A stretch of 63,610 nucleotides of DNA, filler included, from Sluysia triapertura (Eukaryota): assembly GCA_046118255.1 (NCBI GenBank). It is 5 parts of 5 records of this genome, joined end to end, with 100 filler letters (N's around TTAATTAATTAA, not from the genome) between each part and the next. Parts side by side here need not be neighbours in the genome. Positions count along the whole stretch, not along the records: positions 1 to 12,694 come from JBJNIA010089682.1; positions 12,795 to 29,239 come from JBJNIA010203596.1; positions 29,340 to 40,202 come from JBJNIA010192417.1; positions 40,303 to 51,115 come from JBJNIA010193117.1; positions 51,216 to 63,610 come from JBJNIA010113199.1. One strand, 5' to 3'. A model generated the notes under the pieces. The model saw nothing but the letters and a program-made list of their open reading frames with translations. It ran no database searches and was not told the DNA's origin. Below, in pieces: positions 7,334-58,159 of the stretch. Each line of letters begins with the position of its first letter. Within the stretch, counting starts at the first letter, position 1. The position numbers and the translations under genes are program-made.

Positions 7334-7889
7334 ACAATAATAACCAAACATCCTGACAATAACATTTAAAACATATGGTGTTTTCAGAATCACTTGATAA
7401 TATATATACTCTTGTCTTCATATCTTCGAACTCATTTACTAAAAACTCTAATTCCAATAAAATATCCATCACAAAATAAATACATTCAAAAACAAAATAA
7501 TTATTGGATAGACGTAATTAATTAATAACTCAATTGAAATTTTATTTTATTTTTAAATATTGTGCTTACTCAAATCAAATGCAAATATGCAATGATGTAA
7601 TAATCAATTTTTTGAATTGCATTGAATCAATCACTGTGAACTCTTGCATCTCGCTCCTGGAAAGTTAACCAAATAATCGAACTGCCTAAATCTGAGAAGC
7701 TGCCCAAATTAAATACTAATATTGAATGACAATAATCAAATTCTTGCTATAATTATAAAATAATTGTGTGTATCATTCATATTTGCGTAATTAATTTTTC
7801 TATTTTGCTTCCTTTCACTGTTTTTCTTGTTTTATTTGTTGTGCATTTATGTAATAATTTTTAAATTCTACTCTGTATTAATTTTTCTA

Positions 7890-9717
7890 CAATTAATTTC
7901 ACTCATGGCCAATTTTATTCCTATATGACCAGTCAATTTCTTCTACATAAAATAGCCACAACCATACAATTCATCCTATTTGTTAATTTAAGTCAATCTA
8001 TGAACACTTGTGCTTTTTATTTCTGCGTTACTAACATTTTTGAACTTTCACAATGTTTCTGTTCAATGTAAAGCCTTTCTCCTGGCTAATTGCATTTCTT
8101 TTTTATTTTCATGTTTTTAAAAATTCTTTTGTGTATATTAAAATCATAATTATTCTATATTATTTTGGTGGAGTTAAGTTAAAATTTGATAAAATTAAAT
8201 TTGAATTTACAAAATTTATCTTGAGTAAATTTGAATATATTTGTTCATAAATTATTGGACTTATTCTTAGTTGATAAAAAATCTTTTAAGTTTGAAGATA
8301 AATCTTATATAACTTTTACTAAAATTATTAATAATTCACTGAAGGTAAAGCACTTAGAACTATCATGAAATTTATAGAAAAGTTATTTAAATAAATAACG
8401 TGTCAACAATTACATAAATTTTATTTAGTATTAAAATAGGCACTGTAAAATTTGCCGCTGTATTCCCATGTACTTCATTCTGCTTTACTTCAAAAAGGTC
8501 GCCTAAATAAAAAAGATATAATTTACAAAAAATTTGGATAATAGAAAAATTTACAATTTCAGATTTTCTGTTACTGATAACGAATTCCATTTCTTTATCA
8601 ATTAAATAATTCTCATTTACCTTTAGTAATTGTAGAGGTGAACACATAGTTTCAATCTTAGTCTTATCTTTTCTCTTGATCTCAGTTAGATAATCGTGAA
8701 AATTATAAACATTCCGATGATACAATTCTAACCAAATTTCAGGATCGTTGCTTACTGAATATATAGAAGAGAGTCTTCTTAAATATTGAGTACGTTCGTG
8801 AATAACTGCACATTTTTGAAGCGTGACAGTAGGCATAAATATTGTTGTTATACATGCTGCATGTAACGTTCTGATTAAAGAGTTTTCTACAAAATCAAAA
8901 CAACGCATTTTTAAACATTCTTTATCAAAACTTAAAAGTTCATAACTACAAGAATCATCACTGCTTTGAAATGATTTAACAATCTTTAACTTTTGTTTTC
9001 GGGTCTGAACTATTTCTGTATAAACTAAATTAATTACAGAATGATAAGGTAACTCATGATTATAAGACGGTTTGAATACATAAGCTCCTTGATGCATAGC
9101 TAAATGAATAGATATAAAATCACTTTCATTATTTTCGACTGAAATGCGCTTATTAGATATTTTAACTAAATTATCCATTAATTTCGTGATGTAACATAAT
9201 CGATGTATCAGATCGATTACAGTAACTAGAACTTGCGGGATATTCACGTAGAGAGATAGATTCTACTGTATTTGTAAAATTGTGATAATCTGGATTTTGA
9301 ATCAATACTGATTGAAATCCACTATCAATAATTATATTAAATTTTATTTTAAAATTTTCTATGGCATCTCGATTAGAAGTAGAAGACGGACATTAAAATA
9401 AACTCGTAATTATCAAGTGAATCAGGTGATTCATTGTCAAAATACCCAGACGAATATGCGCCCAAAATAGGTATTAACTTAGGATTCATATATTTATAAA
9501 CTTTATAGCATTCTGAATAACTGGTCAAAAGAAATAATACTTTATATTTGTTGTTGGTAATATCTGAAAATAGATTGTCATTCATTTTACCAGAATAAAC
9601 GTCTTTAATAGTATTTAAAATTAATTCAACCAAGTTTTCACGTTTCATTTGATTATCAAAATCATTTGGAAATTGATCAGATAATACAATCACTGTATCC
9701 ATAAACATAATGAGCAT
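7890..9717 (-). pseudogene. Frameshifted, highly diverged Dicer-like gene: PAZ, connector, degenerate RNase III, probable dsRBD; no helicase
   Basis: FKIKFNIIIDSGFQSVL (~9355-9300) resembles PAZ YKTKYNLDLTNLNQPLL. LIHRLCYITKLMDNL resembles the connector helix ILYRLHCLLTAEEL. FDFVENSLIR..HAACITTIF (~8900-8840) resembles LEMLGDSFLKHAITTYLF. KSEIVN..KLYLFYLG resembles KSIAD..GCYLTSCG. GCG..KKLTGHIGIKLAMSEI (~7975-7895) has dsRBD spacing. Confidence 0.65.
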
Positions 9718-56181: not shown

Positions 56182-58159
56182 TTTGGATTATTAGCACTCT
56201 GATAAGATTTATTTAAGAGGTTATATTTATTTAAATATTTTATTAATAAAATTAACTTAATTCTCTTAAAATATATTATTAACAATCAATATTAAAACGA
56301 TAAAACATATATTACGTAGAACTTTAAGAAATTTAATATTTTAATAAATTGTTCCAATTGTCTTATTTTTCTCGAATATGACATGAAATTCATACCACAA
56401 AATTCTCTAAACATATAAAATAATCATCAAGAAAATAATTAATTACTTGTGGTACGTCATTAATTGGAAAACTGAATGAATTGCGAATTTGATGATCTTT
56501 CATAATTGTAACGTCTTTAGTGGTTGGTTTTTCTAAGTCTGATCTGATTCCTAAACTTGATAATAAGCCTCGAACTCGTTCATGGTGATCATCAGCATTT
56601 GGCGTACAATCAATAGGACGGTATAATTCGAAAGGTCCATGAGAATACTTGCAATTCCTACCATATTTGAAACATTCACTTGTTTCTGTTGATTGATACA
56701 TGCAAAGTGCCGTCTTGTAGTAATTACTTTTTTTGGTATTATTCTTGATATATTCGTTATGTTGACTGGATTCATTTTTTATATCATCAGACTTCATATT
56801 GTATAATTTATTCGGCATAAAACTTTGAAGATTTGTAGAAGGATGTAAATACTGGTTTAGTGATTCACTAATCTTAAATTTTACATCAAGAGAATAATTA
56901 AAACGTGTGCATCTTTCACAACGCCATATGCCGTATAAGGGTGCTTTTTCATGGTACATATTTTCATCACAAATATAATCACTAGGTATATCGGTTCAGA
57001 ATTCACAATATAAGCTTCATCTTTAATACTAAAGCTGGATAAGCTGGAACGGGAACTTCTTGCATATTTAATATTGGTTTATTAGTTGACAAGCTTCACA
57101 GTTTTCATCGCGAAAGAATGTACATGTACGACATATCCAATTCATTTTTCGAAATTATATATATTTATACTATTCTATTTTAACTATTTTATTTTGCTAT
57201 TTTATTATTTATTTTTAGCAACTGCTCTGCAAAACAAATGGTTGGTAATCAACTGTATTAAAGAAAGACGATTAAAGTGTTTGTAAAATGCTGCAACTGT
57301 GTTAAGTTAATGTATCTTTATAATTTAAACGACTGTCACCGTTGACAGTATAAGTTAATTAGCTAAAGTATCAATAAAGTGGCAGCAACGGCAAAAACAA
57401 CAATTGATGGTAGTGATACAAATAATAAAATGACCATAAAATGATAATAAAATTGATTAAGATAAAATTTGTAATAATAATAAAAATGAAAAATAATAAT
57501 AATTAATATAGAAATAACAAAGAAAATAAATAAATAAATAAATAATAATAATAATACTATAAAATGAAGTAAATAATAATGAAAAAAAAATCAACATAAA
57601 AAAATTTTTAAACACATAAATCTTTATAAAATAATTCTTATAACTTAAATTCTTTAATCGCTTATTAAAAATGTAATTTTCTAAGTCTGCTATTTAAATA
57701 TAAAATGTAAATGTAAAATAAAATGATTGATTTTCTTATTGTCTTAAGATAATCTTGCCACAGCAATAAAAAGAAACAAGGTGGTTAAGGGTATTAAAAG
57801 AAATGAATACAAGATGTATATAAATTAGTGATATTCTACTGAAGATGTTAAAGAAACTCCATTTTTCTTGTAATGTTAAAATTGTTTTAAAATATGCATG
57901 TAATGTTTTTTATTGACGTTAATGATTGAGTGTTGAAGGATTGTGAACTTAAAATGTTTTGAATTAAGTAAAATTTGTACGTTTGATGATTTTGGATGTT
58001 GAATAAAATTTAAATGTTATGAACTTTCTAATTTATCATGTTTGAAAGTATTGACAATTTTAAAGAATCGCAAAAGAAATGAATTATTGAATATTTATAA
58101 GAGTGGTTTTTATGTGTAATGTTAAATTAAAATTTTAAGATATTAGGTTGGCCACCACA
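56182..58159 (-). mobile_element. Cargo-family element (copy D, 1978 bp) carrying RanBP2-ZnF + CCCH gene
   Basis: Terminus TGTGGTGGCCAACC at 58159(-); other end T(T)TGG at 56182. ATACC direct repeat at 56177-56181 and 58160-58164. Removing the element rejoins the host element's coding sequence. Confidence 0.85.
56390..57144 (-). pseudogene. Zinc-finger cargo: RanBP2-type finger(s) plus CCCH finger; interrupted by a stop/frameshift
   Basis: MNWICRTCTFFRDENCEACQ (57144 onward), WRCERCTRFN and YKTALCMYQSTETSECFKYGRNCKYSHGPFEL. Confidence 0.75.

Follow-up and report, generated by a model that had tools for sequence, protein, structure and literature searches.

The 63,610-nt stretch of Sluysia triapertura DNA (assembly GCA_046118255.1) analysed here, which we call the window, is made of five contigs joined by N/linker spacers, with a GC content of about 25% (75% AT), and contains pieces of animal-type host genes (myosin head, PolQ, a C2H2 finger and GH38 in the Pfam scan). 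Its subject of interest is a set of gene-bearing units with one sharp TG end, named A (10711-), A2 (7336-), B (36975-), D (47213+), E (58159-) and F (12275+), in which a leader and a promoter-like zone precede a protein-coding region, here termed the cargo. The coordinates of the units and of the features that bear on them are collected in Table 1.

Conserved ends, leaders and promoter-like zones

The original prediction described four copies starting with the 13-nt end TGTGGTGGYYMAC, and all four are exact and beyond chance (10711-, 36975-, 47213+ and 58159-, in units A, B, D and E). The sequence TGTGGTGG occurs five times in the window versus 0.2 occurrences expected from composition, the fifth (31639+) being within a coding exon, and with two mismatches allowed the end yields six matches, a number reached in none of 100 shuffles. 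A further end, that of leader F at 12275+, had been overlooked. Behind the ends, the predicted succession of a G-poor leader, an AT tract and then a palindrome/CCAAT zone is present, and units A, D and E have their ATG 973-1015 nt inward of the end, in line with the claimed start of the open reading frame (ORF) about 0.8-1.25 kb in. The shared chassis that had been proposed is common as an architecture, although its sequence is mostly not alignable. Over the first 450 nt, 3 of 21 leader pairs beat local shuffles (z-scores of 16.8 for D-E, 7.3 for D-F and 6.7 for E-F), with nhmmer in agreement, while among the five copies originally listed this holds for a single pair of ten (D-E). One of the 15 pairs of promoter zones aligns, and it represents the inverted duplicate within A2. 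Traces had been reported from all five contigs; the one in the second contig (about 13650-14060) is compositional alone, with no alignment. The surrounding stretch at 13070-14060 (-) contains a G-poor tract, an AT tract, a CCAAT-like site and decayed coding-looking DNA, lacks a TG end, and is possibly an old member.

The two ends of the units are asymmetric, one being sharp and conserved and the other variable or ill-defined. The TG..CA far ends with 5-bp duplications, as first reported, are at chance level save in E, the far end of which is not CA. A CA with the matching 5-mer is present 1.5-4 kb downstream of 1318 of 4664 random TG sites (28%), and this test is therefore weak. There are four CA+ATATT sites for A, four CA+AAAAT sites for B, and a single CA+AGAAC for D (48843), inside the D cargo, while no CA+GGTAT is found within 6 kb in E. 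Of the 5-bp duplications, that of E stands, as an independently bounded GGTAT; the candidates for A, B and D are indistinguishable from chance.

Insertion, repetition and cargo

Unit E resides inside a relic of a Ty3-type element (G2), and a relative of this relic without the insertion (G1) is also present in the window. The two relics are 65.5% alike over 1.8 kb, and a Ty3 capsid match (E = 0.0024) is below the cut-off. Two small blocks flanking E are separated by 152 bp in G1 but by 2,254 bp in G2, which places the leader and cargo of E within at most 2.05 kb of inserted DNA. The chance of encountering A+GGTAT within the allowed 280-bp interval is 0.049, and no stop interrupts the relic frame over the 26 codons that start at the duplication (chance 0.09). 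No empty-site joint was found among the joints listed (best 15 of 416 and 15 of 16). Since E represents one 1,978-bp insertion of leader plus cargo with a 5-bp duplication, its cargo is likely to have moved together with the end.

The ends of E, one change away from a 5-bp inverted pair, form no longer terminal inverted repeat, and E has neither a long direct repeat nor an end hairpin; in both E and A, the first and the last 300 nt share no direct repeat, and the last 200 nt of both lack short terminal inverted repeats and terminal hairpins (end folds of -1.8 to -3.5 kcal/mol). These termini bear on the unlikely scenario in which the units are non-autonomous DNA cassettes with captured retrocopies, moved by an integrase-like transposase (Ginger/TDD-like) recognising very short ends: the TG end, the 5-bp duplication of E, the lack of internal retrotransposon genes and of a second copy beside any unit all agree with it, but the inverted repeats of E do not extend beyond 5 bp and the ends are strongly asymmetric.

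Repetition was assessed for the E and A regions as the summed depth of matching contigs of one sequencing run, at 80% likeness for E and 85% for A; contig depth does not equal copy number, and is taken solely as “tens or more”. This run is the one found to contain the stretch; no RNA run was listed as containing it, which has no bearing on expression. In E, it amounts to 397-822 over the cargo and 8,726 at the TG end, with window-identical contigs at 11-17; in A, it is 244-1,665 over the cargo, 12,541 at the TG end and 15.8 just outside, while the window's own contigs overall have depths of 11-27. Paralogous contigs are 87-89% alike (22/178, 33/249 and 27/250 letters differing). The high depth over the cargo of both E and A refutes the possibility, raised at the outset, of single-copy host genes, and in A the repeated part ends at 8180-8300. 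It does not reach the far end first assigned to A at 7561, as the repeated part stops near 8240, with depths of 19-63 over 7580-8179 versus 244-12,541 over 8420-10699. The observations support mobile units with multi-copy cargo travelling with the end.

An element consisting of the 1-kb leader and promoter alone, beside which the genes survive as separate retrocopies, would be in keeping with leaders far more repeated than cargo and with cargo varying by locus. Such an arrangement is very improbable, as leader and cargo of E form one insertion inside another element, and the repeated cover of A continues unbroken from leader into cargo (422 and 1,045 at 9620-9859). A rolling-circle, Helitron/Helentron-like origin, in which one sharp end is combined with read-through capture of neighbouring genes, is also improbable, if a little less so. 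The ill-defined far ends, the A depth falling away from the TG end, the strand-skewed composition, the hairpins, and the position of 3 of 4 TG ends after T all point in its direction, but E has no TC..CTRR, short terminal inverted repeats or terminal hairpin, and carries a 5-bp duplication where none is expected; the known insertion sites, A|T for HLE1 and T|T for HLE2, also count against it. The least probable origin, to which we give hardly any weight, is target-primed copying of long interspersed element (LINE)- or Penelope-type, whereby the TG end would correspond to the RNA 3′ end and the far ends would be truncated. The depth gradient of A and the inverted duplication of A2 could be accommodated, but there is no tail at the TG end, the duplication of 5 bp is short, and the far ends of A, D and E are all situated 100-210 nt beyond the cargo stop; moreover, no hammerhead or other Rfam family is near threshold (0 of 9 weak matches is a hammerhead), although decayed copies could be missed.

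The cargo of E combines two W-x-C-x2-C motifs, which we take to be RanBP2-like, with a CCCH finger that was correctly predicted and is of the Unkempt type (PF25427, 36.3 versus a cut-off of 31.1, E = 5e-9; PDB 5elh, E = 5e-5). A weaker copy of this finger in D stays below the cut-off (PF25427, 21.4, E = 2e-4), and the Schlafen part of the Schlafen+CCCH combination proposed for D is weak (PF04326, E = 0.073 over 23 amino acids), with no Schlafen among the PDB matches of the D cargo. The cargo does vary among units, but the statement that the ORF differs each time needs to be qualified, since D and E have the CCCH finger in common and their cargo is not wholly different. The MLH1-like cargo of B is indeed a MutL/MLH1-family fragment (PF01119, 26.3 bits versus a cut-off of 26 over 45 amino acids, E = 6e-6; TIGR00585, E = 5e-4); the MutL ATPase part was not detected in the B cargo, and, judging from its offset relative to TIGR00585, a start without introns would lie about 1 kb from the end. 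The leader and cargo of B are joined solely across a 141-N gap.

In A, the frame open for 291 codons is genuine coding DNA (chance 2e-12), but the Dicer-like identity assigned to it found no match in Pfam, PDB, NCBIfam, 1.8 billion representatives or the Atlas. Structure models of the A cargo were too poor to use (pLDDT 32 and 46; best fold Z 4.6, unrelated), and a beta-alpha pattern resembling a helicase lobe was noted by eye alone. The A2 ORF, for which an OB-fold had been suggested, is without any match in Pfam, PDB and NCBIfam searches. Protein searches with A, E and B pieces were empty, and no loci were found in metagenome or viral contigs. The single match in the representatives search, an SRCR repeat protein, is unrelated, and the weak Cas matches that were all PADLOC returned were rejected. 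All cargo copies in the window are broken by stops or frameshifts. The 24 differences in the A cargo, among 40 of 212 sites listed, are distributed 12/8/4 by codon position, with no third-position excess, and mostly represent changes private to the window copy. As predicted, no reverse transcriptase, integrase or transposase is present among the families found in 15 frames scanned over the five cargo regions. The idea of a counter-defence toolkit is not established, since it relies on the Dicer and Schlafen labels, which have no or weak support.

Unit A2 contains an inverted duplication (4751-5163 and 5971-6366, 78%) comprising promoter zone and ORF start, placed around a 1-kb ORF, and its long ORF is on the + strand, suggesting a foldback-like form of the family. 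The far-end 80-mers of A (8243) and D (49738) are in the top 0.1% of 3,000 random window 80-mers, this being one of 15 comparisons and picked post hoc. Two candidates, a 6-bp TATATT end at 8240 in A and an exact AGAAC at 49810 in D, were rejected as being at chance level.

Table 1. Units, cargo and associated features in the window
Feature	Position	Strand	Remarks
Unit A2	4751..7336	-	End variant, with TG at 7336 or 7333; leader followed by inverted duplication
Unit A	8243..10711	-	About 2.47 kb; depth puts far end at 8180-8300 (approximate); CA at 8243
A cargo	8387..9717	-	Three frames, open pieces of 114, 73 and 291 amino acids; no family assigned
A promoter-like zone	9790..10014	.	CCAAT, 63-bp tandem duplication, 12-15-bp hairpin
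Primer-binding-site-like motif past A CCACCACA end	10716..10724	+	Degenerate
Leader F	12275..12694	+	Related to D, E; cut by contig end
Unit B	35042..36975	-	Leader and heavily decayed MutL/MLH1-type cargo on either side of a 141-N gap; no defined far end
Primer-binding-site-like motif past B CCACCACA end	36982..36992	+	Also resembles A2 terminus
Ty3-type relic G1	43739-46074, within 42900-46660	-	Relative of G2 without E insertion
Unit D	47213..49738	+	About 2.5 kb; far-end candidates 49733-49934; cargo from 48185
D twin palindromes	47972..48038	.	Facing CCAAT/ATTGG boxes
Ty3-type relic G2	56064..60649, within 56064-60670	-	Host of E; primer site 60649, gag-like region
GGTAT duplication beside E far end	56177..56181	-	
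Unit E	56182..58159	-	1,978 bp, TGTGGTGG...CCAAA, inside Ty3-type relic; sole copy with both ends bounded
E cargo	56390..57145	-	Two W-x-C-x2-C motifs and Unkempt-type CCCH finger; stops in 5′ part
E palindrome in promoter-like zone	57332..57349	.	
GGTAT duplication beside E TG end	58160..58164	-	

Several other mobile or duplicated sequences are present in the window. Both Ty3-type relics (-) have primer sites, which presumably resemble elongator tRNA-Met, and a gag followed by a long acidic ORF, with no pol detected in them. Inside G2, a TG...CA-like element of about 1.1 kb (54930-56054), with a summed contig depth of up to 1,010,436, is an extremely abundant repeat, and probably an ordinary solo LTR (long terminal repeat). 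A reverse-transcriptase fragment at 40404-41640 (+; PF00078, E = 4.6e-12) is cut by an LTR related to that of G1. At 49840-51115 (+), a decayed ORF finishes with a hydrophobic stretch, a purine tract and, from 50669, the start of an LTR; judged by eye, and with no Pfam match, this is the 3′ end of a possibly env-bearing element. A fragment of a Na/K-ATPase beta chain (PF00287, E = 4.7e-5) is located between A and F (about 12047-12166, -). Elsewhere, we observed a 147-bp tandem duplication within a large PolQ exon (25755-26059), a family of about 35-nt motifs with CTAG cores repeated in clusters (2211-2370 and 62590-62646), and a decayed pogo/Tigger-type DNA transposon (37296-38946; PF03221, E = 4.6e-9) with inverted arms of about 86 bp, a piece of which is found again at 15222-15399.

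Orientation and identity of the units

There is, in our estimate, an even chance that the 2-2.5 kb units are unusually long, mostly solo LTRs of a Ty3/Gypsy-type retrotransposon, read opposite to the cargo strand; the TGTGGTGG end would then correspond to U5, and the cargo would be a gene lying antisense in a variable U3. A giant gene-bearing solo LTR, as originally suggested, is thus preferred here too, although its orientation is probably opposite to that implied. On the anti-cargo strand, the last 300 nt contain 51-77 G and 14-30 C residues, and are G/T-rich, downstream of AATAAA, and closed by CCACCACA; AATAAA followed by a G/T-rich stretch is found on this strand in 5 of 5 examined units. 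Metaviridae LTRs are described, in the available text of one account, as having AATAAA followed by a GT-rich stretch and an R/U5 more conserved than U3 (PMC3601003), and crapaud subfamilies, from the accessible part of another, as differing in U3 with R/U5 in common (PMC10787394). The depth peak at the TG end and the confinement of the D/E/F alignment to it fit a conserved R/U5 and a variable U3. In addition, GT[AG]CCCA occurs three times in the window, once in the G1 primer site and once each 7-8 nt beyond the A and B ends, and an 8-mer derived from G1 is found at just one further place, after B (rough chance 5e-4).

On the anti-cargo strand, the layout would read as the far end, the antisense cargo, a two-way palindromic CCAAT promoter, a hairpin and AATAAA-rich tract (R), a G/T-rich U5, and CCACCACA. 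Its promoter would drive element RNA in one direction and cargo mRNA in the other. Template switching between RNAs packaged together may have exchanged or lengthened U3, yielding subfamilies that carry different pieces of host origin, in many cases fused to one Unkempt-type CCCH finger; such switching is presented as a general capture mechanism in the consulted portion of PMC5131818. The retrotransposon integrase would generate the 5-bp duplication, and LTR-LTR recombination would leave behind promoter-plus-gene cassettes. The DNA itself shows the repeats, one bounded insertion with its duplication, the lack of long terminal repeats (inverted or direct) and the strand composition, whereas the LTR identity, orientation, promoter activity and capture route are inferred. 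In this reading the units work in the manner of gene-bearing LTRs, and their membership in Ty3/Gypsy is not proven.

The same LTR origin can also be read along the cargo strand, with the TG end as the start of U3, the leader and CCAAT zone as U3, and the cargo in a very long R/U5. The TG start, the CCAAT boxes 80-200 nt ahead of the ATG, and the AATAAA near the E far end are compatible with this direction, which we nevertheless consider rather unlikely, if not quite as remote as a rolling-circle origin and slightly more so than transposase-moved cassettes: it would make U3 the conserved, most repeated part and U5 the variable one, contrary to what is usual in the LTRs covered by the accessible text of PMC3601003, and the primer-like motifs are found beyond the TG end, with none after the E far end.

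A number of observations weigh against long LTRs with an antisense gene. AATAAA is common in 75% AT DNA. The primer-like motifs constitute a likeness of 7-8 nt alone and are missing from 4 of 6 ends, and since the B motif equals the A2 terminus, nesting could explain it; there is no tRNA gene in the window. No direct LTR pair was found in the window, no gag or pol follows the A or B ends, and no polypurine tract was seen by eye. Folding revealed no strand preference, with mean z alike. Of the short inverted TG...CA termini, one end fits in four copies; the other end of E is CCAAA (AA, not CA), that of A has CA at 8243, and that of D is undefined. The frame-register test across E failed, as its left flank is one base out, and the first flank bins of E have depths of 18-65, to which low-likeness matching adds noise. 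The discarded far end of A at 7561 does read GCACA|ATATT, and a match of 70% between the tail of A and 46821-46950 runs across the far end proposed here. Finally, a single family is assumed from the architecture and the 13-nt end, because the A, A2 and B leaders do not align with those of D, E and F.

With these points taken into account, the units are real and probably represent an LTR retrotransposon variant. The fuller proposition is a tentative one, which we hold to be somewhat less than evenly probable. In it, the LTR U3 of a Gypsy-type lineage would have become an exchangeable cassette for antisense genes, served by a two-way promoter of its own and loaded time and again with host nucleic-acid genes (often Unkempt-fused), and each solo LTR would form a complete promoter-plus-gene unit scattered in tens to hundreds of copies.

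Comparison with known systems

LTRs normally lack coding sequence, and an element normally loses its genes when a solo LTR is formed. If the proposed organization is true, a swappable gene in the LTR would preserve and spread promoter-plus-gene units after recombination, opening a path to gene duplication and domain shuffling that was not encountered in the literature searched. No published account of an LTR family with exchangeable host-derived genes was found, most subscription journals and Repbase being outside the search. Precedents exist for each part separately, namely a U3 gene, an antisense accessory ORF and domain-rich giant elements; the published systems are compared below as described in the portions of the sources that were accessible.

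The units resemble Ty3/Gypsy (Metaviridae) solo LTRs (PMC3601003; crapaud, PMC10787394) in the TG/CA-type terminus, the 5-bp duplication, AATAAA followed by a G/T-rich stretch, the conserved R/U5 and the subfamily-specific U3, but differ from them in their length of 2-2.5 kb and in the presence of a protein-coding gene inside, where LTRs are ordinarily non-coding; their parent element was not found. Ginger1, Ginger2 and GingerRoot (PMC2836005, PMC6839031) have a TGTNR-type end and a 4-6-bp duplication in common with the units, and GingerRoot carries gene fragments; however, their terminal inverted repeats span 40-270 bp in Ginger1/2 and 100-150 bp in GingerRoot, while E has none. LTR-mediated retrocopies (PMC5131818) likewise involve host pieces, chimeric cargo and secondary amplification by an LTR element, but are flanked by two LTRs, whereas E is without a terminal direct repeat.

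The planarian Burro elements (PMC6431247) offer a parallel as giant Gypsy-type elements with many host-like domains from an AT-rich flatworm; their extra domains (BIR, MATH, BCL2) reside in the internal polyprotein, not in the LTR. In the plant Grande, RIRE2 and Retand elements (PMC7264820), an antisense accessory ORF with its own promoter is found near the 3′ LTR, like the proposed cargo, but is placed between pol and the LTR, while the gene of E is inside the duplication-bounded unit. The LTR of mouse mammary tumour virus (PMC4667437) harbors a gene, sag, inside U3, as proposed here for the cargo. In contrast to sag, which is one fixed gene in sense orientation, the cargo of the S. triapertura units varies, appears to be host-derived, and would be antisense.

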